DNA of 49,193 nucleotides, counting the filler, from Jimgerdemannia flammicorona (lineage: Eukaryota): NCBI GenBank assembly GCA_003990765.1. It is 2 parts of 2 records of this genome, joined end to end, with 100 filler letters (N's around TTAATTAATTAA, not from the genome) between each part and the next. Parts side by side here need not be neighbours in the genome. Positions count along the whole stretch, not along the records: positions 1 to 24,548 come from RBNJ01000960.1; 1 more part is not named here. The stretch is one strand, 5' to 3'. Below are positions 1 through 44,751 of the stretch, in pieces. The notes under the pieces are model-generated. The model was not told the origin of the DNA. It made no database searches and worked only from the letters and a program-made list of their open reading frames with translations. Position numbers and translations under genes: made by a program. The number at the start of each line of letters is the position of its first letter. Within the stretch, counting starts at the first letter, position 1.

Positions 1-135
1 ATAAGTTATACTATTAAAGACTAAGCTATATTGAGTAAGAGTTATAATTATTAATATATATAATAGTATTAAGACCGATAATTAATTAAATGTAAATTAA
101 AAATATTTATTAGTATTAATAGAATAATGCAATAT

Positions 136-961
136 TGTAATAACTCTCACTTCTATCCCTCTCTTATCCTTTGGATAATTAGGGAAGTGGACTATTACTT
201 AGGGACTTAGTACACAATGTGTACCAAGAAGCCTTTAGTTTGAGGAAGCACTTGCTTAAAGTAGTTGTAGCAGCAGTGCCTTATCTTTCAAAGGTCTTTT
301 TCTGGTTTGCCTTCTGTTTCAAAGGTCTTTCTCTTGTGCTCTATTTCGAGAGTCTTGTTCTTTGCTGTACACAGACTGAATTTGCCTTGGAATTCAGGTT
401 CAATGGGTTTACTTAAGTCTTTGGGGGTTTATATACTGGTCTCAGTTCTGACAGAAGTTAGCTAGGCTTCTGAAGTTTAGTCAAAAACACTAGAGTCACT
501 TAGATATCATTACTAAGACTCAGGGGAATGTGTGTGTGGGGGGGGGACTTGATTCCTGTATCAAGGACTGAACTAAAACTGCTTTATTTCAGATGGAAAA
601 CTGGGGGGTATTTATACAAGTTGGTCCACAATTTCTGACTAAGTATGAGTGACTAATTTGGTAACTATAATGAGATTTGTGATCATGACCTTTGTCAGGT
701 GGTTTTTGGCAAAAACAACTTTGTGATCAGGACCTCAATTACTAGGCAATGATCAGCTGCTGTGGCAACTGTTGCTGCGGTGCTGATTGTTGGGGATAAG
801 CTGGATATCGTTTTCCACATCATTTCATATCATTCGCATCGTTTGTCATTCGTAATTCATATGTCGTGCTTTGTTCGTATGATGATGTCATTTCCAGGTC
901 ATGTGATCATTCATCATTTGTCATTCATCGTTCGTCATTTGTGCTTTCTTATTCTATTATA
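136..961 (-). repeat. 3' LTR of element A
   Basis: Starts TGTAATAAC; ends TATTATA (CA end mutated to TA); colinear with 8533-9358. Confidence 0.95.
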
Positions 962-974
962 TCCTTCCCCTCTT
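962..974 (-). other. Polypurine tract of element A
   Basis: AAGAGGGGAAGGA on the minus strand, abutting the 3' LTR. Confidence 0.9.
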
Positions 975-1803
975 AGAAATCAATGTTCTCATTGATTGAG
1001 AAATTGAGAACCAGGGGAGAGAAAGATGGGGAATCCTCCTTAGAGTCATTACCATCTTCTTCAAGAGCAGGGGGGGTGGTGGTTGCAGATGGCTCACTGT
1101 CCAGGATGGAGAAGTCAATGAGGTCTGCAAATGGTTCTTGCATTGAAATAGGTGCTGGTATAGGGATTCTCCATCTGATGCAGTTGGGGCCATCCAAGTA
1201 GGGCTCTTGATCTTCATGCCTGAGAATATCCATTCAGATAGATGGTCCTTCAAAGAGGTCAGAGAGATCTTGGAGCCATTGGTCAGGGTTGTCATTCAGA
1301 AGGGGGCTCCAGTAGGGTTCGCAGTCAGTAGACTTGAGGGTAATCCAGGAGTTGGCTTCTTGGGCAACCTTGACTTCTAGGGCATCGACCTCAGAGAAAG
1401 AGAGGTTCTGGAAGTCCTTCAGTTGTATGTAGTTGAGGTTGGGGATCATGAAGAGTGCATGGCACATGATTTGATGGACCTTCTTGGCAAGTCTTTGCTT
1501 GTGCCTGTCTAGGTGAGTCCAGTCAGAGACCTGGTCTGTGGGTAGGCCACTTGTATGTTGGAGGAGCTAGTGACCGATTTCATATTCATGCCAGATTTCT
1601 AGGCAGCTGGTAGCAAGGTAGGCCCTTTCAATAAGTTCACAGCAGTCAAGGACATACTGTCCTAGGTCTGGGCTGGAGAGGTTAAGGGCCTCTGAGTGGC
1701 GGTTCCTTCCTTGGATAGCAATCTAGATATGTCCAAAGAGGCGGTCAACCTGGCTTGGGAGGGGCTGGCTACAGCGGGCAGTTTGGCGGCAGGTGGCAGG
1801 CAT
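973..1803 (-). pseudogene. Accessory ORF of unknown function (276 codons, 3 in-frame stops) in env-like position of element A
   Basis: One frame from ATG 1803 (MPATCRQTAR...YVLDCCELIERAYLATSCLEIWHEYEIG...AKKVHQIMCHALFMIPNL...FADLIDF...SPLVLNF) joins track ORFs 1234-1467 and 973-1233; homologous to the LTR ORF of element B. Confidence 0.88.
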
Positions 1804-1868
1804 TCTTGTCTTGTCTTTTTCTTTGTGAGGAAAGAGGGATGAGAGTTGTGGGGTATTCTTGCCTTGGG

Positions 1869-1876
1869 TATTTATA
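1869..1876 (-). promoter_or_regulatory. Candidate TATA box for the accessory ORF
   Basis: GTATAAATACC about 65 nt upstream of ATG 1803; same motif as the LTR TATA at 609-616. Confidence 0.5.
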
Positions 1877-2449
1877 CTTATTCACCTGTCTGATGTGACC
1901 TTCCTTTGGTCATGCTTTCTGGCAAAAATGCATGACCTGTGCTATAAGTGGAGCATGTACTGGTCACATGAGAAAATTCTGATTTCAAAGATCTCGTCAC
2001 CCATCTGTGGTTACACAGGGTTAACAGGTCTTGGTCTACTTTTTTTTTGTCTGGTTGGTACATTTGTGAGGACTGGCCATCCTTGTCTAGGGCAAGGGCT
2101 CCCATTGTCATGGCTGGGGGTTCAAACCTCTCGGAAATAGACTTTTCTTATAATCCGAGGCAATTTCTAGTAACAATATCTGTCACATAGATGGACTTAG
2201 ACTGGTTTCAACATTGTCGGCTTTCCTAAGTTTCACATGAAGTGTCTGTCATCATCCAGCGGAGATGACACAGATGGCATGAAATAGAGTTGTTCAAATG
2301 TATTTTGCTATACTGTACTAGATTGTTCTTTTGCTCGGGTATCTTTTCGTTGGTTATCCATAGTGTTCCTTTTTCTCTGCAATGTTTGGTATTATATGTT
2401 TCCAGTTAAAAATATGTGGTATCCTTCTGCTCGCTGTATAGTCCTATAC

Positions 2450-2660
2450 TTAGAGCTGTAGTTCCTTCCTTTGCTGGGGGGTGAGTGTTTCCATGTAGTC
2501 CTGGAGGGCTTCACGTGCATTCTTTAGGGCTTCTTCTTTTTCCCAGATAGCATCATGGGTGGGGTAACTCTTCCACTTGATCAGGAAAAAGTGCTTGACT
2601 GTTTTGGGATATTTGCAGACCTTGTGGTCAAGTACTTCCTCAATTTTGAATTCCTCATGA
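2450..2660 (-). pseudogene. Chromodomain at the integrase C-terminus
   Basis: EEFKIEEVLDHK...FLIKWKSY...DAIWEKEEALKNA matches the chromodomain pattern. Confidence 0.9.
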
Positions 2661-5600
2661 TCATTGATCCTAATTAGAGGTGGTGGTGGAACTGTATGCT
2701 TGGGGAATGGGTTCTCATGGTAGTCCACCAATTGGCTGATATGGAATACCAGGTGTACTCAAATATTATGGGGAAGTTGCAACTTGTAGTTGACTTCGCT
2801 GATTTTTTCCACGATCTTGTATGATTCAATTCTTCTAGCATGGAGTTTCTTGGCTGGTTGTTGTGCCAGGGTGTCTGGGTGGAGGTGGTCTGTTCTAAGC
2901 ATAACCTTGTCACCAATATTGTAGGAGGCTTCTCTTCATTTCAAGTTCGCGTACTTGGTCTGGTAGTCTTGTGCTTCTATGAGAGCATCTCTTGTCATTC
3001 GGGTAAGGTCAGAAATGGTCTCGGCCAGATCTTGGGCTGCTGAGACTGCTGATTTTGCGGTAATACTTGGGGTCCTTGGGTGTTGACCATGGTTCAGGAA
3101 GAATGGAGTCTTCTTTGTAGAGGTTTGCTGACTATTGTTGTAGGCAAACTCAGCATGGGCTAGGTACTTATCCTAATCATTTTGCTTGTAACAGCAGAAG
3201 ATGCTAAGCATCTGTTTGAGAGTCCTGTTGGTTTGCTTGGTTTGACCATCAGTCTGAGGGTAGTAGGCAGTAGAGAACTTCAGCTTGGTTCCATGGAGAG
3301 AGAAAAATGCCTTCCAGAAATTGCTTGTGAACTTGGCATCTTGGTCAGATACAATGGTGCTAGGCATGCCATATAGCCTGAATACTTGGTTGAGAAAGAT
3401 CTTGGCAATCTCTGGTACTGTAGCAGTGGTCTTGGTGGGTGCAAAATGGGCTTGTTTACTTAGGCGGTCTACAAATACCATGATGGCATCCCATCCTGCC
3501 TTGGTCTTGGGGAGTTGGACAATGAAGTCCATCGCAATCTGGTCCCAATTGTGGCTCGGGATAGGCAAGGGTTGCAGGAGTCCTGCTGGTAGCTTGTTAC
3601 CACTTTTGAACCTTTGGCACATCTCGTATGAGGCCACAAAGTCTTTGATATCCTTGGTCATCTTTAGCCAGTAGAACTCTCTTGAGAGGAGGTTGTAGGT
3701 CTTTTCAAAACCAAAGTGTCCTGCTGCAGGGGTATCATGGAGTTCCTGCATGATCTTGAGTCACAGAGTATCATTGTTGGATACAACCACTCTGTTATGG
3801 TCCCTGTAGATAAGTCCATCATGGTAGGTGAATCTCTTGGCCATTTGCCTCATGGGTTCTGGAACCTCGGCCTCTGGGTCTTGGCAGAATTGAAGGAATT
3901 TCATCAGGGGGCTGTCTTGCTGGTAGCCATCCTTGATCATTTGGGTAAGGTCTCTAATTACTTCGACCATGAAGACAAGTTCGTCTTCCATGTACCTGGA
4001 GAAACCATCAGCCACACGGTTGGTTTTGTCTGGGATATACTTGATTTCCATATCAAAGTTGGCAATGATTTCCATCCAGCGGGCTTGTCTGTGGGTCAGC
4101 ATAGGCTGTATATGAATATACCACAGTGCATGGTGATCAGTATAGGCTACAAATGGCTGTCCTAGGAGGAAATGGCATCATTCCTGGAGTGCAGTGACAA
4201 TAGCCAGGAGTTCCTTCTCATGGATGGTATACCGGGTCTCAGCTGGCTTGAGCTTCTGTGAAAGGTAGGCCACTGGGTGGTCTTCTTGGCTGAGTACTGC
4301 TCCAATAGCAATATCAGAGGCATCTGTGATCAGAGTGAATGGTCTGGTAGGATCAGGTACAATTAGCACTGGGGCCTCAGTAAGAAGTCTCTTGAGATGG
4401 TCCATAGCCAGGGTACATTCAGGGGTCCATTCAGCTTTGATGTTCACTCCTTTATGGGCCAGGCTGGTCAATGGGGCTGCAATAGCAGAGTATTCTTAGA
4501 TAAACCTTCGGTAATAACCGGCAATACTCAGAAAGTGCTGGAGTAGCTTGAGGGTAGTAGGGATAGGGATATCCTTAAGGGCTGATACCTTTCGGGGGTC
4601 CACATTGATACCTTCAGCAGAGATGATGTGTTCTAAGTACTCAATCTGGTCTTGGTAGAACTTACACTTGCTCATCTTGGCATAGAGCTGGTATTCTTGT
4701 AGAAGGATCAGTACTTGTCTAAGGTGGGTATAGTGTAGCTCTACTGTCTCGCTGTAGATTAGTATATCATCAATATACACAAGGACACAGATGTTGAGGA
4801 GTGGTCCAAAGATGTCATTCATCAGATACTGAAATGTTGCTGGTACATTGGTCAATCCAAAAGGCATGACTCAGAACTGGTAGTGTCTAAACTATGTTTG
4901 GAAAGCTATCTTCTCAATGTCCTTCTCATCAATGAGAATCTGGTGGTAGCCATTTCGCAGATCCATTAGAGAAAAGGTCTTGGCCTTGAAGATTTGGTGT
5001 AGCAACTCATCAATCCTGGGCAAGGCATATCGGTTCTTGATGGTGATCTTGTTGAGGGCTCTGTAGTCAATACACATTCGCAGAGAGCCATCCTTCTTCT
5101 TGACAAATAGAATGGGGGCTCCAAATGGAGAGTGGCTGGGTTCAATGTATCTTTGGGCCAGTAGTTTGGTCAATTCATCCTTGAGGGTCTTGAGCTCAGG
5201 TTGAGCCAGTTGATAGATACTCTTGTATGGGGGTTCAGATCCTGGGATAAGATCAATTCCATGTTAGATTTGGTGCTTGGGTGGAAGTCCTTGAGGATCT
5301 TGGAATACATCTTGGAATTCTTCAAACAGTTCTTGAGCTTCTGTTGGGATTGGGCTGCTGGTAGCTTCAGTGACTTCTTGTACTATACAGATGAAGTAGG
5401 TGTTTCCCTTTTTTCGAGAGAGTCTCTTCATTTGAATGATAGAGATGATTTTGATTCCTTGGTGGTTGGTATCTTCCTGGGGTGTCAGGGTGATCTTTCT
5501 GTCTTCATGGGTCAGGTTAACCTCATTGGTTCTCCAGTTAATGTCTGGGTTGTGCTGGGTCAACCAGGCTTTTTCTAAGATAATGTCTTGTCCTGGGAGG

Positions 5601-6164
5601 TCTACAATGCTGAAGTCCAACTTCTCTTGATATTTGCCAATCTTGAGCAAAAGGTCCTCGCAGATCTTAGTCAATGGTGCAGTTTTTCCATCACCAAAGG
5701 TAATACATCTTTTCTCAGTAGTTGGTCTGCTTTGGGCTCTAATCCTCTTGACAGTCTTGGTGCTGATGTAGTTTCCAGTAGCACCACTATCAAGCAAGAC
5801 ATTGATATTTTGTCTGTGGACTTGGCCTGTGAACTTGATGCAACTATCCTCCTTCTTGATAGTATTGAGCTCTTTATCCTCATTGTTGTCCCAATTGCTG
5901 TCAGTCTCCTCAAAGTCAGTTTCTTCTCATCCTTCACAAGTAGGGTTGTCTTGTTTGGGTTCCTCAGTCTGTTGAGCTTGGCACTTCTCGGATTGAATTT
6001 TGAAAACTTTGGAGAGGTATGCATGGCATTTACCAACATATTCCATGCAGTACATTTGAATGGAATGAGGGTATCATCTACATGGTGCATAACCATCTGC
6101 AATTCTCTTGTATCAGTTTTCATCATCTTCCTTCATGGTAGTGACCTTTTGACTGGGAGGTTTG

Positions 6165-6580
6165 TTGGTAGATCCAAACCCTTTCTTGCTCTGATCTGTC
6201 TGAGAGAGTTCAGAGACTTCTTCAATGGTGAGATCTTGATGGATTTCTTCAATGATTGCTTGGGCAATTCTTTGACCTGTTTTGACTTCAAATGAGGTGT
6301 CTCCAAAATTTTGCAAGATGACACGGATTTCACCAGTAAATCCTTGGTCAACTACTCCTTCTCCTAGCCCAATGTTAAACTCTTTGGCTAGGCTGCTTTG
6401 CTCAGCAAGGCGGATGTATGTACCTCTGGGGGCTTGTATTGCAATTTCTGTTCACATGGTGGCATTGGTACTTGGTGGGATGGTGAGGTCTTGGCTGTTG
6501 TAGAGGTCATATTCAGCATCAGTTGGGTGGGCCTTAGTGGGGATGGTAGCCTTGTACCATATCTTCTGTACTTTGATAAC
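6165..6580 (-). pseudogene. dut: dUTPase domain between Gag knuckle and protease (element A)
   Basis: Motifs DAEYDL, QSSLA, GVVDQGFTGEI, GQRIAQ, KGFGST. Confidence 0.93.
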
Positions 6581-8517
6581 ATTCTCAGGGTTCTTCTTTC
6601 CTGGACCTTCTCCAATAACAGTAATGTTCTGGTTACTGGGTTTGCCTGATCTGTTTCTCTTCTTGGGGCATTTGACTGAGATGTATCCTGTCTTCTTGCA
6701 GATGAAGCACAATCCTTTTTCATGGAGCTGCTTTTTCTCATCCTCAGTGGGAGGTCTGGGTCCTCTGGGGTTTTACTGGTTCCTTTGATCATATCTTTGA
6801 TCATATCTTTGGTCATTTCTTTGATTATTTCTCCTGGTAGGATTCCTCCTATCTTGGTTATCCTTCTTGTGTTCTTGATTTCGTGGAGCTTGTACAGTAA
6901 GGATTTCGCAGGCTCTTCTTTGTACTTGGGTAAAGCACTATGAGTAGTGGGGACATCCTTGGGGAAGACCTTGTTCCTTGATCTTCTGGGTGAGCCAGTC
7001 TGGTAGGGCTGCAAAGAGATGATTGGCTCTGGTACCATTGATGGCCAAATTGTTCTCCTGGTAGGTAAGTCTAACGGTTTTAAGATAGGCATCCATTCTG
7101 GTGGCAAAGGTCTCTAGATCCACTTCGCCATTCTTGTGGAACTTCATCTGGGACAGTTTGTTCTATGTTTCTTATATGTAGGCCACATTTCGGAATTTGG
7201 TCAATAGCAAGACCTTGAGTCCTGGGCCTGCTTTATAGTCATCCCAACCTGGTCTATTGTTGCCAGGTACTTGTCTATTGACTTGAGGGCGGGCTTCCCA
7301 GGTTACTGGGTGTTGTTCCAAGGTTCACCAGAATTCAGCTGCTGTTCCAGTGAAGAATGTGGCTACTGTTTCTACTTGTGCTGCTGATGTGGCAAACAGC
7401 TGTTGAAGGGTGCTGTTCTGGTTGTTGGTGAGCATTCCTATAGGTACTTGGTTGTCATTCCATTGGTTTGCTCGGTAGCCTGTGTCAACTGCATTGATGA
7501 AGTTTTCAATATCACTGTTTTTTCCACTGAATATTGGGATTCGCAAGGTCTTGGTTGGTTTGTTCTGTTCAGCAATTTGTCCTACTATCTCTGCTAGTGC
7601 TGCTAGCTGGGTAGTCAGTACTGCAATGTTGACATCTACCATTGTGTTGACTAGTGGTGGTGGGCCTGTTGGGGTAGATTCTCCTAAAGATTATTCTACT
7701 TGGTGGGGTTGTGGTGCTGTATGACTTGGGGTTACTTGGTTCCCAAATATTAAGTCAAAGAGTCCTGTGAGAGAGGGTAAACCAAACCTCTGTATAGGTG
7801 ACTGAGTTGGTCCTGGGGTCTGATCTTCTTGATCTGTGGTTCCTTGATAAGTTCCTAGGCCTGCTGTTCCTCATTGGCTATCGTCAGACTGGTACCCTGT
7901 AGGGTATTCATCTGACTCCCTTCTCTGATGAGATAGTGCATTCTCATACTGACTAGGTCCTTCAAAGAGGATATCAGTCTCTGGCTGAGTTGATGGGCCT
8001 ACTTCTTATTCAGCAGTAGGGGATGGGTGGCCTGCTTGCTTGTTCTCATACCTAGTTATAGCAGAGACATAGTATACAACTAGCCTATAGTAGAGGGAGG
8101 TCTTGGTTGGTGTATGATGATATCTGTCAGAGGCAATCCACTTGGCAGCTGCTTCTCTTGCAGCAGGGGGTGTAATATAATCTAGAAAATCCTGGGTGGC
8201 TGCAGCAGTAGATTCTGGGGTCCTAGTGGTTCCAATGTGTCCTCAGAGGAGTTCATAGAACCTATGGCAGCTAACAATATTCCTAAGTCCTGGGTAGTAT
8301 GTCCTAAAGGCCTGGTATAGATTCTTGTAAGCCTGGTCAATTACAAGCTAGTGGGTCCTTGGGTCTGTAGTTTCCTGGTACCACCTGGTCCTAATGGCAA
8401 GGGCTTCTCTGGCTCTGGTTTGAGGATCCATAGTTATTTCTGGGGGTTACTCCTGTCCAAGGTTGGTCTTGTTCCAACTTCAGGAGTGTGTTCTTAGATA
8501 CCTTCTTGGCTGGTAAT

Positions 8518-8529: not shown

Positions 8530-8532
8530 AGT

Positions 8533-9358
8533 TGTAATAACTCTCACTTCTATCCCTCTCTTATCCTTTAGATAATTAGGAAAGTAGACTATTACTTAAG
8601 GACTTAGTACACAATGTGTACCAAGAAGCCTTCAGTTTGAGGAAGCGCTCGCTTAAAGTAGTTGTAGCAGCAGTGCCTTATCTTTCAAAGGTCTTTTTCT
8701 GGTTTGCCTTCTGTTTCAAAGGTCTTTCTCTTGTGCCCTATTTCGAGGGTCTTGTTCTTTGCTATACACAGACTGAATTCACCTTGGAATTTAGGTTCAA
8801 TGGGTTTACTTAAGTCTTTGGGGGTTTATATACTAGTCTCAGTTCTGGCAGAAGTTAGCTAGGCTTCTGGAGTTTAGTCAGAAACACTAGAGTCACTTAG
8901 ATGTCATTACTAAGACTCAAGGGAATGTATGTGTAGGGGGGGGACTTGATTCCTGTATCAAGGACTGAACTAAAACTGCTTTATTTCAGATGAAAAACTG
9001 GAGAGTATTTATACAAGTTGGTCCATGATTTCTGACTAAGTATGAGTGACTAATTTGGTAACTATAATGAGGTTTGTGATCGCGACCTTTGTCAGGTGGT
9101 TTTTGGCAAAAACAACTTTGTGATCAGGACCTCAATTATTAGGCAATAATCAGCTGCTGTGGCAACTGTTGCTGCAGTGCCGATTGTTGGGGATAAGCTG
9201 GATATCGTTTTCCATGTCATTTCGCATCATTCATATCATTCGTCATTCATAATTCATATGTTGTGCTTCATTCATATGATGATGTCATCGCTGGGTCATG
9301 TGATCATTCGTCATTCGTCATTCATCATTCGTCGTTCATGCTTTCTTATTCTATTACA
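8533..9358 (-). repeat. 5' LTR of element A
   Basis: TG...CA termini with TGTAATA/TATTACA inverted ends; TATAAATA at 9006-9013 on the minus strand. Confidence 0.96.
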
Positions 9359-9877
9359 AATATTTAATTAGTATAATATTTTTTATTAATAAAGTCTATA
9401 ATTTCTTCTATCTATTTTTTAAAAAATAGAAGCATAAATAAGATAATAGTTAGATTAATTATTTTTAATATTCTCTAATTTTTAACTATTTGAAAATAGA
9501 CTAAAAACTAAAGTTTTCTCTTTAGAGATATAATTACTCTTTATAATATTATCTAGTTATTTTTTTTCTCTCTCTAACTATAGAGAGATATCTGAAATAT
9601 AGTTCTTATATAATATAATATAATAAGTAACTTACTAAGTAATAATACTCCAAATGAGCCAATTTGAATATAATTTATCATATGATATTTAGATCTAAGT
9701 TAAATCTAGATTCAATTCATTATATAACTGAGCTAATCTAGATTTAATGTAGATTTGATCTGATTTATTCAATTTAGCTCATCTAATCTTACTCATCCAA
9801 TTCAGCTCATCTAATATAACTCATTTAATTTGACTTATTTAATAAATATTCTAGTAAAATATATATATTAAGTATAT

Positions 9878-11428
9878 TATAACAGTGACTCCAGAATGAT
9901 GACATCAATATAGGAGACAGTCTTTTCTTGCAAGCCACCAGATCAGAGCACAAGAAGATCATATGGTATATAAGATGAACAATAATGACTAACTGTGAGT
10001 CATTGTGACCACAGTATGGGTATCTTGAGGAATATAAAAGAAGAATCAAGAAACTACAATAGTAGTAACCAATAAGACCCACTAATCCCAAAATAGCTCA
10101 AAGACTTACCATAAATGAAATGTCTGCTACTTGTCAAACCTCAAGATCAAGGAATCACTAAGGCATCTTAGTTGAAGAAAGAATGTTCCAAGATATCAGA
10201 AGAGCCATAAAGACCTATACAAAGAGAACTCCTAGTGTCAACCTGAGTACTAGTAACTCTTATTATTATATTCTCTACTACTGTAAAGTGGAAACAAGGA
10301 TCACCATTACTACTGAATGTCTCCAAATATAGCAAGAGTATGAAATAAGAAACCTCCTCTGCCAGGAGTTCCCACAGACCAGCACTCAAGAGCTAAAAGA
10401 TACCACTCTCATAGATATATACGAAACAAGGACAGCTAAAAAGATCTATCAGATCTTCAGACATATACTATGGTTGATCCCCAACTTAGAGTATGTTAGA
10501 GTCTCAGACTTCAGAGACCTGTCAGCCCACTGTATCAATATACTAGAAGCCAGAGTAGCTATAGAAGTCCAGTCCACTATCATTCTTGACAGTGATGAAG
10601 TAGAAGACTTCTGGCATCCTATCCTCCAGGACAACCTAGACCAATTCCTGCAAGGATTGATCTCAGTATTCTAAGGCCCAAGTATCTAGGTTAGATCTCT
10701 CCAAAACTCTACATTTGTTCTCTATTTTATAGAAGAGAACCTTATAGACTGGAGAGCCCCAGATCTCCTTGTTCTTGCCACCACCAAATGTGATGACATT
10801 ATTAGTGATGACATTATCCTATACAACATATGTGATATATGCAATATATACAAAACACATGATCTATGTGATGATGATGAATTTGCAGACCTCATTTCCT
10901 TCAAAGACATCCTGACCTCTGATGAGAATGAAGCCTCTATGGTCTTGAACATTCTGCTTTAAAGTCCTTTGGTGATATTGAATTATGCTAGCATCAGCAT
11001 TCTGATGTGATACTGAATTATTTCAGCATTATTTTCCTATACCACTGAAATTATATCAGTATCCTGAATCTATACAACCATCAGTACTGACCCTGAAACT
11101 TAGCAGTTTTTCCTATTCTGGAATTTTATTTTAGTTATTGGAATTTATATTTAGCTTTATATCTTAGCAACCATTGAATTATATTTTGTATAAATACCCC
11201 TTTTATTTCCTCTAAAATAAAGTCAATCTACTTAGTGTAATATACACACTTTCTTGCAAGCAATTTAAGAGATAACAAGATAGTTTAAAGATAAGAAGTT
11301 TGAGAACTATAAGACCTTGAGAAGGCACTCCAATAAGAACTTGCTTATAACAAACTTGAGTTAGTCTAAGAGATATACCTTGAAGAGAATCTGGCATATT
11401 TGAAAGACTCAGCAACCACTACATAACA
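9878..11428 (+). repeat. 5' LTR of element B
   Basis: TATAACAGTG (decayed TG start)...CATAACA followed by the PBS; GTATAAATACCCC at 11188-11200. Confidence 0.92.
10120..11010 (+). pseudogene. Accessory ORF inside the 5' LTR of B, homologous to 973-1803
   Basis: One frame: MSATCQTSRS...AKKIYQIFRHILWLIPNLEYVRVSDFRDLS...WHPILQDNLDQFLQ...IDWRAP...FADLISF...SPLVILNY; several in-frame stops; TATAAAAG at 10033. Confidence 0.87.
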
Positions 11429-11431
11429 ACT

Positions 11432-11445
11432 TGGTGCCCATTGGC
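11432..11445 (+). other. Primer binding site of element B
   Basis: TGGTGCCCATTGGC, 3 nt after the LTR end; tRNA not assigned. Confidence 0.7.
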
Positions 11446-11554
11446 TGGTGATTCAAGATGAATTCCTTACTTTTAAGTTAAAAAATGAACAACCACCACA
11501 ACAACTACCCTGACTACAAGAGTCACCCCTGCAAGAATTCAAGATAAGATAGAA

Positions 11555-14500
11555 ATGCATCCCCCTACATTCTATGGATATATTACTGAAGAGTCAATCC
11601 TGACCTTCATTGAAGACTTTAAACAATTCACTGCTATATAAGCTCTTCATGTAGATGCACAATTGGCCCTTCTACTAGTCAGCCTCAGAGGACCTACTAG
11701 AGACAAGTTCAATGTAGCCACTATTGCTGATAATGGTGCAGCTAAACTTGCCAATATAAAGGTCTTCCTCAGAACAATATACTATACTGAAGAGATCAAG
11801 CAAGCTCTCAAGAATCAACTCAATACTATCTGCCAGAGACTTAGTAAAGATCCCAACTCATTCTATATCCAAATCTGCCACCAGATTGTCTTGACTGGCT
11901 ATAATGATGCCCTCAAGGAACAAATAGTAGATTCAACCTTCCTCAAAGGAGTTCACCCTAAAATTGCCCTAGCAATTCAGTCTACCATAGCTATACTGAC
12001 CCTTGATCAGAAAGTAGTCTTTACACAAAGATATTGGACTGTCAGACACCCTGCCAAATACTCAATAGAGAAAATAACTGGTATCAAGATAGAGCTATCA
12101 AAGCCAACTAGTATTATATCTGCTACAGTTGTAAACAGACAACCAACCCCACCTACCCCCAAGATAGTCAAAGCTGACCCAGTGGAGGAACTCACTAAGC
12201 AGTTTCCCAAGATGACTGCACACCTTAGTAATGTTGTTAGAGAAGTCCAAAGTACCAACAGGAGACCAGTGCAGAGATTTATAACTGCTATAGAAGAATG
12301 CAACATCATATGCTTCAGATGTGGAAAAGAAGACCACTATGTAAAGAATTGCATGACCAAAACAAGATATAAAGCCCAACTAAGTAATATTAGCAGAACT
12401 AGAGAGCAAACTCATACAGTAGTTATCAAGAAGATTGGTGATACTGATGATGAAGAATACTATGAGGAGCTTGAATTTTACCTTACTACTGAAGGTACCA
12501 GAACCTAGTCCAAGTTCTATGATAAGAAGAGCAATAGAAAGCCAGTTGGAAGACCAAAGAAGACCCCAGCTATCACTATTCAAAGCAAGACTCAACTCAA
12601 GGAGAATGATCAAGACATAGAGTTAGATGGAGCTGCTTGCTAAATCATTGAAGGCACTACTCCAGTCTCAGGAGAAAGTGAAAGCAAGAAGAAATAGAAG
12701 CTGTATAAGACCAAGATCTATCAATATGATATCTATAAGGACCTCAAGAAACAGAAGGTCAATGCTACTTTTGGACAACTAGCCAAAGTCTCTACCTTTA
12801 GACAGTAGTTGAGAGTAGGACTTGCAATTACTACCAAGAATCAAGAGTATAAGATTGTAGAAGCTCACAATATACAGGAAGAATCAGAAGACTTAAGTGA
12901 AGAATCTGAAGACCAGTGCAAGATATCAGCCTATACTCTATGTCAGATCGAAGATTGTAACTTTGATACCATCATTGATACTAGTGCTGAAGGATATCTC
13001 ATGAGCAAGAAGGCAATTGACTGCCTAAGCTAGAACATTGAAGAGTCCACCAAGATAGTCTATATTATAGCAGATGATATACAAGCTACCCCCCTTGGCA
13101 AAATCCAAGAAGTCCCCATCAAGATAGAAGGAGCTACTATCTCAGTAGATGTGATTGTTACAAGTGCCACCAACTATAACATTCTCATTGACAACTAATG
13201 GCTTTACAAGGCCAAGGCCATCATTGATCTCAATGCCTAGAAAATGCAGATCAACTATAGAGAAAGAAAGATATAAGTCTCTATCAATGTCTATAAAGGA
13301 GTTCTACCAGATATGGAGGAAAGAGATGAAGAGGACACAGAAGTCTTTATGCACTCAGTGAATAAGAATAAGAACAAGAACAAGACACCCAAGCTTACAG
13401 ATGAGCAGTGGTATAACAAGATCATTGATAGCTATACTCCTCAAGAAAGATGCCCCCATGGTACTAGGATGTACTGTTCTGAATACCTAAATGACTGCTG
13501 GTCCTATATCAGTGAAGTCAGGAAAATCTGCCAATAGAAACATGAGCAAGAAGCCACTGAAGCAAAAAGGAAAGCAGAAGAAGATGACCAGCCCCCTGAG
13601 CTTCAAGCTGACAGTGATAATGAGGAGGAATAAGAATCAGATATCACTCTCAAGGTCAAGAAGTTTTACCCTAAAGCCAAGATCCCAGAATACAAGACTG
13701 AAAGAGCCATAGGAATGGACCTTGCCAGCATTCAAGATACTTCTCTTGAACTACAGACCACTACCCTACTTGGTATTGGAATTGGAGTCAAGCTACCAGA
13801 GAACTATGCTGGAATTATCAAGACTAGGAGCAGTCTGGCAAAAAGCAAAATCTCAGTTGAAAGAGGAGTAATTGACCCTAATTACACTGGTGAGATCTTC
13901 CTCATAGTCAGGAATCACAATCCCACCACTCCATTCAAAATCAAGAAGCATGATAGGATTGGTCAGATGCTGATCTATGAAATCAAGAAGCCTAAGATCA
14001 CTGAAGCCATCAAACTCATCAAGACCAAGAGAGGAGAACAAGGCTTTGGATCTACTGGAAGAGGAGCCTATGCTGTCACCAAGATCACTAAACTTGAGCA
14101 CAAGAAAGACAGGGACCAGAACAAGCACATATATACTATTGGAGAAAACTTTCCCCTGGAAGAACAACTTCTCAAGATTCTGTACCAGAATGAAGGAGTA
14201 CTTGCTACAGACTTTAGGGATATCCATAATTAAGAATTCAAGTACTACTATGAAGTTGATACTGGTGATACCAAGCCCATCTACCAGAAAGTCAGACCTA
14301 TACCACCTATCTATAGAGAATGGCTGTGAGCAAAACTCAAGAAAATGGAAGAAGCCAGAATTATCAAGCAAGCTATCAGTCTCTGGGCTTCACCCATTGT
14401 CCTTACTCCAAAAAAAGGAAGCAAGCCTGGAGAGTTTGCACCAAGACTCTGCATTGACTACAGGAAGCTCAATGCAATCATCAAGAAGGATAGGCAGCCC

Positions 14501-15579
14501 TTGCCAAATATTCAAGAAATCCTTATCACCCTTGGAAGCAAAGCCAAATACCATGCCACCTTGGATCTGTTCTCAGACTTTTATTAGATTAATCTCACTC
14601 AAGATGCCAGTGAGAAATCAGCCTTTATCACATCTGATACCACCTATATCTACCTATGAATATCATTTGGAATATGCAATACCTCAGCAAGTTTTCAGCA
14701 AATGATGAACAGAGTCTTCAGTAATAAGATTGGAAAATGGCTCTTTGTCTATGTTGATGATATAATCATCTTCAGCAATACTGCACAGGAATATATCAAC
14801 TACATATAGCTAGCCCTCAAGAAGCTCAAGGAGCATGGCCTCTATATCAAGCCCAAGAAATATAAGTTTATAGCTCAAGAAATTGCCTACCTAGGACACC
14901 TCATCAATCAGACCAGAATCCACACAGACCCTATGAAGATTGAGGCTGTTGCAGCCTACCTGAGATCCAGAATAACCACAGAAGTCCATGTCTTCCTTGG
15001 ACTGGCCAGCTACTATAGAAGATTCATCAAAGGATACTCTAATATTGCAGCACCTATCTACAAGCTACTGAAGAAGGAACCAAATTCGAATAGACTAAGG
15101 AATACCAAGAAATCTTCAATGAACTCAAGATCAGGTTGACTCAAGCACCTATCCTCAGAAGACCAGATTGGAACCTAGAATTCATCCTGTAGACAGATGT
15201 AAGTACTATAGGACTTGGAGCAGTCCTAGCTCAGAAGAAAGATGGACATGAATATGTTATCTCCTATGCAAGCTGAGGTATCTGCAGAGCAGAACAGAAC
15301 TATGAGTTATGCAAGCTTGAATGCTTAGCAGTAGTTTGGACAGTAGACAAGTTTCACTACTATCTAGCTGAGAAACACTTCACTATTCAAACAGACCATT
15401 CAGCTCTTGCCTGGTTATTCTACACTCTGAACTCTAAAGGAATATATGCCAGATAGATTTATAGGCTGCAAGAGTATGACTGTACTGTCAAGTACTACTC
15501 AGGAAGAACCAACACCAATGCTGATGCACTCTCAAGGATACCCCAAAACACTCCCATCAAGACTATTCAATATGAATAA
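11555..15579 (+). pseudogene. gag-pol: gag-PR-dUTPase-RT-RNase H of element B
   Basis: PPTFYG gag start, CFRCGKEDHYVKNC knuckle, IIDTSA protease, RLCIDYRKLN and YVDD RT, NADALSR RNase H end; one frame to ~15075, then a 1-nt shift. Confidence 0.92.
13648..14059 (+). pseudogene. dut: dUTPase domain between protease and RT (element B)
   Basis: IGMDL, RSSLA, GVIDPNYTGEI, DRIGQ, RGEQGFGSTG. Confidence 0.95.
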
Positions 15580-16819
15580 GGAGTTATACTATGGATTAAT
15601 CAGCTATCATGGACAGTGGAAGATGCTCAACCACCTTGAACCCTGGACAATTATCATCATCAATCAGACTTGGAAACAGTTTGAACTAGACAACACTATA
15701 CTCAGAAAAAGAGGAAAGCTAGTAATACCTAAACATAAGAAGTATTAAGTAATAAAGGAAGTACATAAGCAAAGACACCTAGGAGGAATCAATATATATA
15801 ATAAGGTAAGAAGAACTATATGGTGGTCCAAAATGGAAGAAGACCTGCACCAATTTGTCAAAGGGTGTGATAAGTACCAAAAACAGAAATAAGATCAGCA
15901 AGACTAGGCACCCAGGTCATCAAGAATTGAGCCTATCCCCTTCCACCACATTGTAATAGATATCATTGGGCCACTACCAGTAATACTATCAGGAAACTGC
16001 TATATTATAGTTATTATAGACCTCTTTACCAAATAGATAGAAGCAGGAGCATTACAAGAAGCCAATGTTCTCTCTATAGCTGACTTCCTATACTGAGAAA
16101 TCATCTGCCACTACAAGACACCAAAGCAAATCACAACAGATCATGGCACAGAATTTGTCAATGGATTCCATGAGATAATGTATCAGAAATAAAAGATCCA
16201 GCACATCAAGACCACTGCATACCACTCTCAAGGAAATGGACAGATAGAGAGAACCAATAAGACTCTTAAGAACATTCTAGCAAAGATCTCAGAGATATAT
16301 GAGAATTGAGATAACTATCTCCCAACTGCCCTCTCTGTCCTATGAGATATACAATTATAGAGCATACACTTTACCCCAAGAGAACTGCTCTTCAGAGAAG
16401 AAGATTCTGATGAAACCTCAGCTACAAATCTAGACCTAACTTAGAGATAGGTTGATACAGAAATCTGGAGACTACACCAAATTAGGAAGAAGGCTGAAGA
16501 TTACATTATCAAGTCACAAACACTAACAAGGAAGAATGTGGAAAAGAATCACAAGATCCTAGAATCCATCCAAATCAGAGAAAAGGTCCTACTGTATTGA
16601 AATATGATAGAAGCCTCATGGTCACGAAAACTGAAGCCCAAATGGAAAGGACCCTTCTATGTGTAAGATATCAAGGGAACTACCTTCTAGCTTAGAAAAA
16701 TCTCAGAGACCATACTGCCTACCATGATATATAGGAACAGACTCAAGAAGTACCATGAACCTATACAAGAGAAGCAAAACATGATGACCACCCATGAGGT
16801 TCTAGTCCACAAATCATAA
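15572..16819 (+). pseudogene. int: Integrase of element B, in a different frame from RNase H
   Basis: ATG 15572 MNKELYYGLI...HKQRHLG...CDKY, IVIDIIGP, TDHGTEF, YHSQGNGQIERTN, KWKGPF; 416 codons with internal stops. Confidence 0.9.
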
Positions 16820-16823
16820 CAGC

Positions 16824-17102
16824 ATGTCCCATGACCAGCAAGCTATCTGTCTGGACTATTCTCTAAGGGATATGGCACAAGCAACTACTCATCCATGAGA
16901 CTTTCAAAGCTAGAGAAGTTTGAACTGTCAACTGATTGATCAAGATCAGAATCAGGCCCTTGCTCTATATGTATGAAGAGAGCAACTCTTTACCATTATG
17001 CCAAAATATAAAGAGAAGATGTCAGCCTATAAACACCACTTTTTGACTCCTTGCCAGAGGTTATAGGATCAGCAAATTTTTCAGGACTAGACCAATGAAT
17101 AA
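16824..17102 (+). pseudogene. Possible short extra ORF (93 codons) between integrase and PPT
   Basis: ATG 4 nt after the IN stop; fills the space to the PPT; five internal stops, all TGA/TAG. Confidence 0.4.
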
Positions 17103-17126
17103 GGATGCTTGAGAAGATCCTTATTC

Positions 17127-17136
17127 AGGAGGAAGA
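17127..17136 (+). other. Polypurine tract of element B
   Basis: AGGAGGAAGA directly before the 3' LTR. Confidence 0.85.
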
Positions 17137-18684
17137 TATAATAGTGACCCCAGAATGATGACATCAGCACAGGAGACAGCCTTTCTTACAAGCTACCAGA
17201 TCAGAGTATAAGAAGATTATATGGCATATGAGATGAGCAATAATAACCAACTGTAAGTCACTGTGACCACAGTATAAGTATCTTGAGAAATATAAAAGAA
17301 GAATCAATAAACTACAGCAACAGCAACCAACAAGACCCACCAATTCCAAAATAGCTCAAAGACTTACTACAAATAAAATGCCTGCTGCCCACCAAACCTC
17401 AAGGTCAAGAAACCACCAAGATATCTCAGTTGAAGAAAGGATGTTCCAAGACATCAGAAGAGCTATGAGGACCCACTCAAGAAGGACTCCTAATGTCAAC
17501 CTGGATACTGGTAACTCTTATCACTATATTCTCTACTGCTGTGAAATGGAAACAAGGATCACCATTGCTACTGAATGCCTCCAAATGTGGCAGAAGTACA
17601 AAATAGGAAACCTTCTCTGCCGGGAGTTCCCACAGGCTAGCACTCAAGAGCTATAAGATACCACTTCTATAGATATACATGAAACAAGAACAGCTAAGAA
17701 GATTCATCAGATCTTCAAGCATGCACTATGGTTGATCTCCAACTTGGAGTATGTTAGAGTCTCAGACTCCAGAGATCTATCAGCTCACTATATCAATATA
17801 CTAGAAGCCAGAGTGGCTACAGAAGCCCAGTCCACTATCACCCTTGACAGCAATGAAGTAGAAGACTTCTGACATCCCATCCTTCAGGATAACCCAGACC
17901 AATTCCTGCAAGAATTGATCTCAGTATTCTAAGGCCCAAGTATCTAGGCTAGACCTCCCCAAAACCCCACATTTGTTCCCTATTTTATAGAAGAGAACCA
18001 TATAGACTGGAGAGCTCCAGACCTCCTTATTCTTACCACTACTAAATGTGATGATGTCATTGGTGATGACATCATCCTGCATGATATATATAAGATGTGA
18101 CATATATGAAACACACAACCTATGTGATAATAATGAATTCATAGACCTCATCTTCTTTGAAGACATCCTGACCTCTGATGAGGATGAAGCCCCTATGGTC
18201 TTGAACATTCTGCTCTAAAGTCCTTTGGTAATACTGAATTATACTAGCACTGGTATTCTGATATAATACTGAATTATTCCAGCACTATTTTCCTATATTA
18301 CTAAAATTATACTAGCATCCTGAACCTGTACAACTATCAGTATCAACTCTGGAACTTAGCAGTTTTTTCTGTCCTGGCATTTTATTTTAGTTATTGGAAT
18401 TTATATTTAGCTTTATATCTTAGTAACCATTGAATTATATTTTGTATAAATACCCCTCTTATTTTCTCTGAAATAAAGTCAGTTTACTCAGTACAATATA
18501 TATACTTCTTTGTAAGCAATCTAAGAGATAATAAGATAGTTTAAAGATAAGAAGTTTGAGGACTATAAGACCTTGGGAAGGTACTCCAATAAGAACTTGC
18601 TTATAACAAACTTGAGTTAGTCTAAGAGATACACTTTGAAGAGAATCTAGTATATTTGAAGGACTCAGCAATCACTACATAATA
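17137..18684 (+). repeat. 3' LTR of element B
   Basis: Colinear with 9878-11428; both termini decayed to TA. Confidence 0.92.
17378..18266 (+). pseudogene. Accessory ORF inside the 3' LTR of B
   Basis: MPAAHQTSRS...YILYCCEMETRITIATECLQMWQKYKIGNLL...TAKKIHQIFKHALWLISNLEY; small indel near 18050. Confidence 0.87.
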
Positions 18685-19458
18685 ATATATACTCTCTTTT
18701 ATATTGTTTTTATATTTTATTATATTGATAGATTTTTTTAAACAAATAATAGTATAGATGATACTTCTAGCCAAACTGCTTTAAGTTGTTATATCTTATA
18801 CTCTAATATCTGACAGTATTGTAAGAAGAATAGTGATAATATTATTTATAACTACTATAGATAAAAAATGATTAAATATTATATACTATCTTTTTTTTAT
18901 AAGTTATTATTAATATATATATTTCTAATTGAAATATTTTTATATATATTTTAAATATCAGACAAATATATAAAGCTTCTAGTAAATTAACTTTAAATAT
19001 AATAAGACATATAAAAATCCAACATCTAGACAAAATTGAGCAGATTGAAGTAGTGTGCAAATTGGAAGTACTAATAATAATAAGTATACTTTTTTTATAA
19101 AAAAAAAAAAAACTTTAGGAGAAAATAAAGCTAATATATATTAAACCTGATAAACAATATATTCAGCTCTTTTCTTTGAAGAAATTTCAAGATCTACTCA
19201 TTTAGTGAATTGTAATCTCTGATCGGCTATTTACTACTATTAAAAGTGCTTCATTATATACTATCAAATATCTACTTTTATAAAAAAAAAAAAAAACTGA
19301 TTTCAGATTTTTTTTACCTTCTTTTCTCTAAAATAGAATATGGCAGACAAATTTTATTTACTATTAATATATAGACATCACCTAATATAATATTATTTCT
19401 TGGTATAACAGATCATTGAATTGATATAAATTAGAAACTTCAATCTCTCACTCTCAAT

Positions 19459-20598
19459 TAGTGCTCTCAAATAAATTGAATCAATTTAAATCAAATTGAA
19501 TTGAGAGTATTTCAAATTAAATTGGGGATTTTTCAATTTGAATTAGGTTTGAATCAAATTGAGTTCAAATCAAATTAGGGGTCTGATTTAAAATGTTCAA
19601 ACCAAATTGAGGTCTGATTCAATTTGAAATTGGAAATCAAACTTTGAAATATAATAACTTAATGAAAATATATCCAAATTTGATATATTTTAGCTTGTTA
19701 GATTCGCCTTAACAAAGTAAATCTGATACAATAAAGATCATTAGATTTGAATATATTTTCATCACATTATTATATTTTAAATATTTAGGTTCAAAATTGA
19801 GATCTGATTCAATTTGAAATTGAAAATCAAAATTTGGAATACAATAATTTGATAAAAACATTTCTGAATTTAATGTATTTTAGCTAGTTGGATTCGTCTT
19901 AATAAGGTGAATCCAGTATAATAAAGATCATTAAATTTGGACATTTTTTTGTCAAGTTATTGAATTTTAAAAGTTTAGATTTGTAAATTGAGATCTGATT
20001 CAAAGTCAAACTTTGAAATACAATAACTTGACAAAAACATATCCAAATTTAATGTATTTTAGCTTATTGGATTCACCTTGATAAGGCAAATCCAGTACAA
20101 TAAAGATCATCAAATTTAGATATGTTTTTGTCATGATATTGAATTTTAAAAATTTAGGTTCATGAATTGAGGTCTGATTTGAAGTCAAATTTTGAAATAC
20201 AATAATGTGATGAAATCATATCCAAATTTGATGTATTTTAGCTTATTTGATTTGCCATAATAAGATGAATCCAGTACAATAAAGATCATTAAATATAGAC
20301 ATATTTTTGTCATGTTATTTAATTTCAAAAATTTAAATTCATGAATTGAGGTCTGATTTGAAGTCAAACTTTGAAATGGAATAACTTGATAAAAACATAT
20401 CTAAATTTGATGTATTTTAGCTTATTGGATTTGCCTTAATAAGATAAATATAGTACAATAATGATCATTAAATTTGGATATGTTTTTGTCAAGTTATTGA
20501 ATTTCAAAAAATTTAGATTCAAATTGAAATTCAAATTAAATTAGGCCTCAATTTAATTTGAAGTTAATTTAATTCAATTCAATTTATTGAAAGTACTA
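19459..20598. mobile_element. Non-autonomous TIR-bounded element (MITE/foldback-like)
   Basis: TAGTGCTCTCAAATAAATTGAA at left is an imperfect inverse of TTCAATTTATTGAAAGTACTA at right; AATTG-rich subterminal repeats; no TSD seen. Confidence 0.6.
19605..20525. repeat. Tandem array of five 179-191 bp palindromic units
   Basis: AATTGAG(G/A)TCTGATT recurs at about 19605, 19795, 19986, 20165 and 20344. Confidence 0.93.
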
Positions 20599-39659: not shown

Positions 39660-40075
39660 CTTATCATCAGCAGTCCTGCTCCCCTCATCCACTACTTTCC
39701 CAGCCCTACTGCCCTCACTGCTATAGATTACTCTACTATATCCTGCAGCCCTCATTACTCTTCTTTAATCAGCCCTCCATTCTAGTTATTGGATAACTCT
39801 CCTTCACCTTATCAGTGAAGCTTGTTCTCCCAGTTCTCTGTTCTCCAGCACTGCCTCCTCTCTTTCTGTATCCTCTAGACAGTAAGCTCTGTATACTTCC
39901 CCCTAAGCCATAACTCCTCTCCACATGCTGTAAGTCAAATATACTAGGGACACCCTACCTAGTTGATACCTCAGAATGCTTATCTGTTACTATATTACTA
40001 GTATCTATTCTCTAAAAACAATGTTTTGAGTATTGTCAGAAGTTTATATAACCCAAATATTACTGGAGAAAGGTG
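39660..40075 (-). mobile_element. LINE copy e (5' UTR and ORF1 start only)
   Basis: Repeats the 5' motif seen at 34670-34745 and 39570-39650. Confidence 0.7.

Positions 40076-42242: not shown

Positions 42243-42316
<74 letters not shown>
40076..42316 (+). mobile_element. 5'-truncated LINE copy f with poly(A) tail
   Basis: Begins in RT (DLGLVIILYRNKDRREDWKN), AFVDN, ends PPRDIG*, 3' UTR, then 71 A at 42246-42316. Confidence 0.88.
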
Positions 42317-44195: not shown

Positions 44196-44751
44196 GATTT
44201 CAAAATCAACATGACTTTTCAGCTCACAAGATCCCACAGTCAAACTGGATACATTTGATACAACACCAACCTCTGCTACTACAGGAGAACTAGTCATCAC
44301 TAGCATTTGGACAGGAAGAGAAGTAATTATCTCAAGACTTGCCAACTACCCAGCATCAGAAGGATCCCAACCAGAAGCAGGAGGCAGTATAGCCCGAAAT
44401 CCTCAGCCAGATCAATCAGATCAACCAGATCAACCAGACAATACAGGCAGCCCTGCTGGAGACTTTGGAGAACTTGTACAAGAACTAGAAGACTTTATTA
44501 CCTGGACCCAACACCTTACAGCCAGATACCCCACACCAGTCCCACCAATTTCACCAATAGAACCCCTACCACAACCTCTTGCAGAACCAGAAGTAGCTCC
44601 TACAAGGATACCTAGGCCTACTCCACCTCACCCAAGGACCAGGACACCATCTTCAAGATACCCAAGCACTCCTGTCTCTAGTGACAGTTCAGAAAGTGAA
44701 TCAGAATCAGAATCTGAATTCGAACCAGAATCAGAAGAAAGTGATGAAGAA

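Follow-up and report, generated by a model that had tools for sequence, protein, structure and literature searches.

Each long terminal repeat (LTR) of element B, a dead 8.8-kb Ty3/gypsy LTR retrotransposon bearing a dUTPase, holds a full accessory-gene cassette consisting of a TATA box, TATAAAAG, a conserved 5′ untranslated region (5′UTR) and a frame of ~280 codons. Element B lies in a 49,193-nucleotide stretch of DNA (the window, filler included) from Jimgerdemannia flammicorona. Its LTR layout is genuine and unusual, and it was seen in this one dead element. We consider it probable that B came from a set of related, cassette-bearing lineages, and that in B the TATA box and open reading frame (ORF) lay within the unique 3′ region (U3) of the LTR and were thereby copied to both ends. 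The features of element B, which lies on the plus strand, are as follows.

9878-18685, plus strand: element B, flanked by TATAT
9873-9877 (left) and 18686-18690 (right): 5-bp target-site duplication TATAT, in AT-rich flanks, register uncertain by 1 nt
9878..11429, plus strand: 5′ LTR, 1552 bp, starting with TATAACAG and ending with CATAACAA, from repeat alignment
10033..10040, plus strand: TATAAAAG, putative cassette promoter of the 5′ LTR, 87 nt before the ATG at 10120
10120..10962, plus strand: accessory ORF, 5′-LTR copy, a pseudogene of 280 codons plus the natural stop TAA at 10960, with premature stops at 10159, 10330, 10672 and 10687
11188..11221, plus strand: LTR core module with GTATAAATAC at 11188-11197 and AATAAA at 11216-11221, the putative genomic promoter and poly(A) signal at the border of U3 and the terminal repeat region (R)
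11432..11448, plus strand: TGGTGCCCATTGGCTGG, primer-binding-site-like, TGG-initiated, 2 nt past the 5′ LTR end
11489..16832, plus strand: internal region with gag (CCHC), protease, dUTPase, reverse transcriptase, RNase H and integrase, from Pfam and from tblastn with the polyprotein of element A
17127..17136, plus strand: polypurine tract AGGAGGAAGA, immediately before the 3′ LTR
17137..18685, plus strand: 3′ LTR, 1549 bp, from repeat alignment
17291-17298, plus strand: TATAAAAG of the 3′ LTR copy
17378..18218, plus strand: accessory ORF, 3′-LTR copy, a pseudogene with stops at 17654, 17867, 17930 and 17945 and a 2-bp deletion

The assignment of B to Ty3/gypsy follows from its domain order. 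Pfam and tblastn placed gag (CCHC), protease, reverse transcriptase, RNase H and integrase in that order, with integrase after reverse transcriptase, in both B and a second element, A. The LTRs of B stand in direct orientation with a short target-site duplication, and a polypurine tract and a putative primer-binding site, opening TGGTGCCC... at 11432, are both present. Because the surroundings are AT-rich, the TATAT at the two ends is supportive rather than decisive. The internal region is interrupted by stops and frameshifts. A Pfam scan of the 77-residue tail of pol gave no chromodomain match, and B was therefore not classed as a chromovirus.

Alignment of the two repeats gave 86.2% identity (1336 matches, 214 mismatches and 3 gap columns). 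The homology starts at TATAA(C/T)AG, which in the 3′ copy directly follows AGGAGGAAGA. This start resembles that of the LTR of element A, TGTAATAG or T(G/A)TAATAG, which comes after the purine tract GAGGGGAAGGA; a family-like terminus, TATAATAG, opens the LTR of B. Once the cassette (TATA to stop, ~930 nt) is subtracted, the LTR of B measures ~620 nt, in the size range of the 826-bp LTR of A. Searching the window by tblastn with the family proteins revealed no solo LTR of B.

An earlier, sequence-only reading had described an ORF of ~890 nt in both LTRs, preceded by a TATA box about 85 nt before its ATG. The TATA box was confirmed, at 87 nt, and the stretch is indeed duplicated in both LTRs. 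The frame, however, contains premature stops and ends at 10962 instead of 11010. The proteins of all five B-type relatives finish with ...LN(F/I)LL, opposite TAA 10960-10962 of B; this codon is the natural terminator, and the stretch up to 11010 therefore falls outside the gene. Under the standard code, no ORF of at least 100 codons was found at 10120-11010. The accessory gene is intact in neither LTR. The 5′ copy carries TAA 10159, TAG 10330, TAA 10672 and TAG 10687, and the 3′ copy carries TAA 17654, TGA 17867, two stops common to both copies and a 2-bp deletion opposite 10842-10843 that shifts its frame. The common stops are 10672 and 10687, equivalent to 17930 and 17945. Either the inserted copy was already defective or the two hot CAA/CAG codons mutated in parallel.

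The same reading had also noted an extra CDIC..H..C segment in the protein of B. As a zinc-binding segment it was rejected: none of the five B-type relatives covering the stretch has a Cys there. Only the 5′ copy has the segment; at that stretch the 3′ copy is out of frame. Protein P0001 has nine Cys residues, compared with two each in P0003 and P0004, as expected if Cys codons arose by transitions. The Cys/His segment is mutational noise.

We next considered where the cassette stands relative to the transcriptional signals of the LTR. The first 242 nt of the LTR precede the ORF of B, and 226 nt separate the end of the ORF from a conserved TATA box. The sole LTR DNA conserved between A and B consists of TGTATAAATACCCC, ~20 nt and AATAAA (84% identity over 45 nt, E 7e-7). 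Each of the four LTRs contains the exact 10-mer GTATAAATAC, and a further occurrence precedes the ORF of A; with one mismatch allowed, nine matches were found versus 3.7 expected. This TATA/AATAAA module is probably the core promoter of the genomic RNA, and its poly(A) signal would coincide with the start site or lie just upstream of it. The sequence-only reading had placed the ORF upstream of the main LTR TATA box. Since the ORF does lie upstream of the module conserved between A and B (it ends at 10962, and the TATA box occupies 11188-11197), the cassette of B is most likely in U3. In B the polypurine tract and the start of the LTR precede the cassette, which would likewise place it in U3.

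The cassette was also found outside an LTR, in element A of the window and in L001, a metagenome relative. The features of element A that bear on the comparison are all on the minus strand.

~8532-9358, minus strand: element A, 5′ LTR
1866..1877, minus strand: GTATAAATACCC, upstream of the accessory ORF of A and identical at 12 of 12 positions to the TATA region of A's own LTR
973..1803, minus strand: accessory homologue of A, 276 codons plus TAA, outside the LTR, with in-frame TAG 1725, TAG 1569 and TGA 1233
962..972, minus strand: polypurine tract GAGGGGAAGGA of A, separating the stop codon of the ORF from the LTR
135..961, minus strand: 3′ LTR of A, ~826 bp, with a pair identity of 93.1%

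A chromodomain (PF00385, E 6.4e-11) marks the C-terminus of integrase in A, and in A only, as that of a chromovirus. Tblastn with five family proteins located the cassette at just three sites in the window, namely the two LTRs of B and 1803-1000 in A, and did not find it in the part of a third element, C, that lies inside the window. As had been proposed earlier, the homologue in A lies outside a shorter LTR. Its stop codon abuts the purine tract at 972-962, and the LTR starts at 961. The same succession, a stop codon followed directly by a purine tract and an LTR start, was observed in L001, which carries an intact A-type ORF of 291 codons in the standard code, with the cassette outside the LTR. 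In B, unlike A and L001, the purine tract and LTR start are both upstream of the cassette.

Despite this difference in position, the three cassettes share their organization. A, B and L001 each have a TATA box ~65-87 nt ahead of the ATG: GTATAAATACCC lies ~65-75 nt before the ATG in A, and in L001 TATAAAAG lies 80 nt upstream of the ATG, with TATAAAAGAA in common with B. B and L001 also share a 5′UTR motif, AAAGACTTAC(C/T)ACAAA, whose version in L001, AAAGACTTACCACAAA, matches that of B at 15 of 16 positions. The accessory proteins of A and B are 38% identical, and the DNA around the cassette does not align between A and B. A and L001 are 58% identical over 266 codons, with a proportion of synonymous differences (pS) of 0.647 versus a proportion of nonsynonymous differences (pN) of 0.254, which indicates that the accessory protein was under purifying selection while the elements were active. 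From these comparisons, the cassette is a conserved unit comprising a TATA box, a short conserved 5′UTR and a stand-alone ORF of ~270-290 codons. In L001, a 12-nt motif, GTCAGGCGGAAC, occurs twice (168-181 and 1481-1492; pairwise E 0.005): one copy precedes the cassette promoter and the other is in the LTR. The two may be a common regulatory site or a chance repeat.

The protein family is small, with five representatives among 1,835,955,588 proteins and four database relatives at E ≤0.001 among 840 candidates. Its members are 138-342 residues long, and none is fused to pol. Pfam assigned no family to P0001 or to the L001 ORF; across ten family members its best match, inspected up to E 1, had an E of 0.088 and did not pass the cut-off. 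A profile search of the PDB returned no match at E up to 10, and a search of the ESM Atlas with P0004 reached a best score of 0.83, short of the 0.9 bar, where the Atlas model had a predicted local distance difference test score (pLDDT) of 0.35. AlphaFold2 gave a pLDDT of 33 from five alignment rows; from ten rows, the mean pLDDT was 55 and the predicted template modelling score was 0.48. In the ten-row model, residues 14-160 mostly scored 60-89, and the chain was helical to about residue 185 and poorly ordered thereafter. With this middling model, Foldseek found no match in the PDB at E up to 0.001, and a wide VIA-align search found none at Z ≥5 (best Z 4.4).

B-type proteins carry a net positive charge over their first 60 residues (+8 in P0004). 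The last 60 to 120 residues are strongly acidic in the four full-length family proteins scored, whose final 60-70 residues have a net charge of -14 to -17; the tail is missing from P0010, a truncated protein. The tail contains the conserved short motifs IDWRAPD/IRWRSP, DLI.F and LNF. The protein is predicted to be helical in its N-terminal part and to end in an acidic tail, which is probably disordered. With low confidence, we suggest that it acted as an adaptor or regulator for the element.

The reading that we prefer can be set out as follows. The host, probably a fungus judging from published dUTPase-bearing chromoviruses (PMC2864245), uses the standard genetic code and would have deaminated methylated cytosines heavily in its repeats. 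A and B belong to related lineages carrying a conserved accessory cassette, which in A and L001 sits between pol and the polypurine tract. Lying within U3, the cassette of B would be duplicated to both ends at reverse transcription and retained in a solo LTR. Transcription from the cassette's own TATA box would yield an mRNA of ~1.1-1.2 kb, terminated by the LTR poly(A) signal that lies ~255 nt beyond the stop codon. Starting at or just past that signal, genomic RNA would escape truncation in the 5′ LTR. With a gene placed in this way, each insertion produces two copies, a solo LTR left by LTR-LTR recombination still holds the gene, and expression can be independent of the element's own transcription. 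Moreover, since A and L001 carry the cassette beyond the LTR and B carries it within, the elements provide a natural before/after pair for studying LTR boundary movement.

Several points weigh against this reading. The in-LTR layout was seen in one element only, with both gene copies dead, and the shared stops at 10672 and 10687 may mean that the inserting copy was already defective. The only DNA relative from the metagenome, viral and prokaryote scans, L001, is of the A type. Transcription start and poly(A) positions are predictions from sequence. The conserved MPA start is present in one of the five B-type database proteins (P0004), the rest beginning at an internal Met. Finally, the suggested role of the protein rests on composition and on a model of mean pLDDT 55 without a fold match.

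The alternative that survives best is that B arose from an A-type parent by a single aberrant cycle, for example by plus-strand priming at an upstream purine tract, and that its layout was never a family trait. We regard this as less likely than the reading preferred above, but as a serious contender. Both DNA contexts outside B, those of A and L001, have the cassette beyond the LTR, and no second B-type locus was retrieved in the DNA scans: metagenome scan 1 gave 468 pattern matches and no relative, viral contigs 66 and none, prokaryote genome contigs 86 and none, and metagenome scan 2 gave 117 matches and one relative, L001. The two stops common to both B copies would also fit a defective source. 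However, neither a remnant purine tract nor a TGTAATAG-like LTR start was found after the stop codon of B, and the LTR of B starts with the family-like terminus TATAATAG. In addition, the B-type proteins form a distinct clade and end ~20-30 residues before the A type, which suggests divergence as a lineage, whatever the layout in those relatives. The sequence-only reading had proposed that a shift of the polypurine tract captured the gene. No direction can be assigned to the boundary shift: an alignment of A, B and L001 around the cassette showed no usable homology beyond the TATA box, UTR and LTR core, leaving no alignable boundary DNA between A and B, and no remnant tract was present.

We then considered whether the upstream TATAAAAG at 10033 might itself be the genomic promoter, in which case the ORF would be the first cistron of a very long R/leader and not part of U3. 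The box is a good TATA box with a conserved UTR downstream. Nevertheless, A and L001 have this cassette promoter too, at a site beyond the LTR from which it cannot drive genomic RNA, and B retains the TATA/AATAAA module of A's LTR. From general retrovirology, an R of ~1.2 kb would also be expected to cause a problem, as the 5′ LTR would then hold an active AATAAA at a great distance from the cap. Taken together, these points make this arrangement very unlikely.

It is more improbable still that the long LTR is an artefact of a tandem or recombinant arrangement, or of assembly duplication, with B adjoined by the cassette and LTR from the 3′ part of another element upstream. Tandem arrays of LTR elements do occur, and the region is a nest of repeats. 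However, homology between the copies begins exactly at the LTR-start motif after the purine tract, the DNA to the left of the 5′ copy is unrelated, AT-rich and without pol, and TATAT is found at both ends. The copies differ by 14%, which rules out assembly duplication of the B repeats.

The proposal that the organism reads TAA and TAG as glutamine (a ciliate-type code, table 6), leaving the frame intact, is scarcely credible. Under table 6 the 5′ copy is open from 10120 through 11010, and the gag-to-reverse-transcriptase frame of B runs on for 946 codons that include 12 TAA/TAG but lack TGA. However, that stretch was chosen as the longest TGA-free run, TAA 10960 coincides with the end of all five B-type relatives, and the 291-codon ORF of L001, terminated by TAA, is already open under table 1. 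In-frame TGA is present too (11 in A gag-pol and one each in the A ORF and the 3′ copy of B), and stops in one LTR copy face sense codons (CAA, TGG, AAA) in the other. Specifically, TAA 10159 and TAG 10330 of the 5′ copy face CAA and TGG, and the TAA and TGA of the 3′ copy face AAA and TGG. At the four internal stop positions of B, the relatives carry Gln, Trp, Gln and Gln/Arg. Because the standard-code ORFs of the relatives stop exactly at TAA 10960 of B, the code is standard, and the table-6 reading of the window was rejected.

The stops instead fit a strongly transition-biased decay. The LTRs of B differ at 214 sites, comprising 208 transitions and 6 transversions, and those of A at 57 sites, of which 56 are transitions. 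The observed/expected ratio of CpG was 0.01-0.02 in B and 0.14 in the internal part of A; L001 is visibly CpG-rich. In other decayed frames of the window, in-frame TGA is as frequent as TAA/TAG. By eye, several TGA codons of A gag-pol fall at what we take to be the usual Arg/Trp positions of gypsy Pol, which fits CGA/TGG decay. As a general caution, CAA/CAG to TAA/TAG decay in such transition-decayed repeats can mimic stop-codon reassignment.

Between the two copies of B (10120-10830 versus 17378-18088), the rate of difference per C/G site was 0.258 at codon position 1, 0.255 at position 2 and 0.378 at position 3, compared with 0.327 (88/269) in the non-ORF part of the LTR. The raw ratio of nonsynonymous to synonymous change, 0.27, is untrustworthy given the 35:1 transition bias and the GC-rich third positions. 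We took these values to reflect neutral decay with a small excess at position 3 and no clear sign of constraint after insertion. The contrast between position 3 (48/127) and positions 1 and 2 together (55/214) may be an effect of sequence context.

Some further observations concern this decay. Of the 208 transitions in the B LTRs, 117 are at C before A, without normalisation for dinucleotide content. By protein identity, the relatives are closer to the 3′ LTR copy than to the 5′ one (78.7% and 65.6% to P0003, respectively). Gag-pol of A (2294-7870, minus strand) is a single 1859-codon frame with no frameshift and 24 in-frame stops (7 TAA, 6 TAG and 11 TGA). One homologous codon (GPSI-stop) is nonsense both in A (TGA, 1231-1233, minus strand) and in B (TAG, 10687-10689, plus strand), where the relatives have Arg, Lys or Gln; we read this coincidence as probable parallel decay of mutable codons and not as a conserved stop.

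The 49-kb window as a whole is a nest of decayed eukaryotic retroelements. Its remaining features are as follows.

~135-961 and 8532-9358, minus strand: LTRs delimiting element A
19604-20655: tandem satellite with a 179-bp period, ~5-6 copies 60-84% alike, 25-29% GC, directly right of B
25.4-28.3 kb, minus strand: long interspersed nuclear element (LINE) with endonuclease and reverse transcriptase domains
~44.2 kb to the window end (44215-49193), plus strand: the third gypsy-type element, C

The dUTPase lies in the gag/protease interval in A and in the protease/reverse transcriptase interval in B and C. A Cys/His-rich stretch (...YAPCR*YPHSIQMYCMEYVGKCHAYLSKV in A and ...YTPQERCPHGTRMYCSEYLNDCWSYISEV in B) is located between dUTPase and protease in A and between protease and dUTPase in B. 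GC skew is about -0.45 across 22-34 kb, a region with the minus-strand LINE and repeats spaced 4-5 kb apart that are ~70% alike. Across 40-42 kb, GC skew is +0.42, with a CpG observed/expected ratio of 0.00 and a TpA/ApT ratio of 1.26; the stretch at 40000-42316 closes with ~71 nt of A (42246-42316) that resemble a retroposed tail.

Among known systems, the nearest in position is the sag gene of mouse mammary tumor virus (MMTV), a superantigen gene in U3 of the viral LTR. As there, the accessory ORF of B most likely lies wholly within U3 and is hence present in both LTRs. The sequence-only reading had drawn this analogy, and it holds for position only; the protein matched nothing known in Pfam or PDB searches, nor anything clearly in fold searches with the middling model. 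MMTV is an infectious mouse betaretrovirus and B a Ty3/gypsy retrotransposon; B also differs from sag in having a TATA box directly upstream of the ORF and in that the gene stands outside the LTR in sister lineages. In an incomplete search, the literature on the U3 region and superantigens concerned retroviruses only.

In spumaviruses (foamy viruses), an internal promoter drives the 3′ accessory genes tas and bet. The cassette resembles this arrangement in being a 3′-located accessory gene with its own putative RNA polymerase II promoter, separate from the LTR promoter, and the identity over 12 nt between the TATA regions of the cassette and the LTR in A would suit co-regulation. It differs in that neither homology nor evidence for a transactivator was found, and in that the whole gene of B, not just its end, most likely lies in U3. 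A bolder possibility, which we regard as doubtful, is that B represents a propagating gypsy lineage with a protein-coding, polymerase II-driven U3 cassette whose protein regulates both the cassette and the LTR promoters, a foamy-virus-like circuit that evolved independently. If so, every insertion would deposit two expressible gene copies, and solo LTRs would remain gene carriers.

For LTR retrotransposons other than retroviruses, our incomplete search of the literature found no description of a protein-coding gene in the LTR, and exceptions may exist in print. A search of a report on bdelloid rotifers for ORFs in LTRs gave only an unrelated match (PMC5408684). Fungal chromoviruses such as PosPlaTy3 of Postia placenta are described as having dUTPase at varying positions and additional ORFs of unknown function (PMC2864245), and Boty/BcGypsy1 with brtn is described from Botrytis (bioRxiv 10.1101/2021.04.13.439636). 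These are gypsy elements with dUTPase at variable positions in Pol, as in A versus B and C, and with extra ORFs; in contrast to B, the additional ORF is not placed inside the LTR in the portions of these sources that we consulted (PMC2864245; bioRxiv 10.1101/2021.04.13.439636). The TRIMp3 elements Cassandra, Helenus and Ajax are small and non-autonomous, and their LTRs include RNA polymerase III units derived from tRNA or 5S rRNA (PMC10886601). They share with B an LTR containing a gene-derived unit with its own promoter, whereas B is an autonomous-type element whose LTR carries a TATA-driven, protein-coding cassette (PMC10886601).

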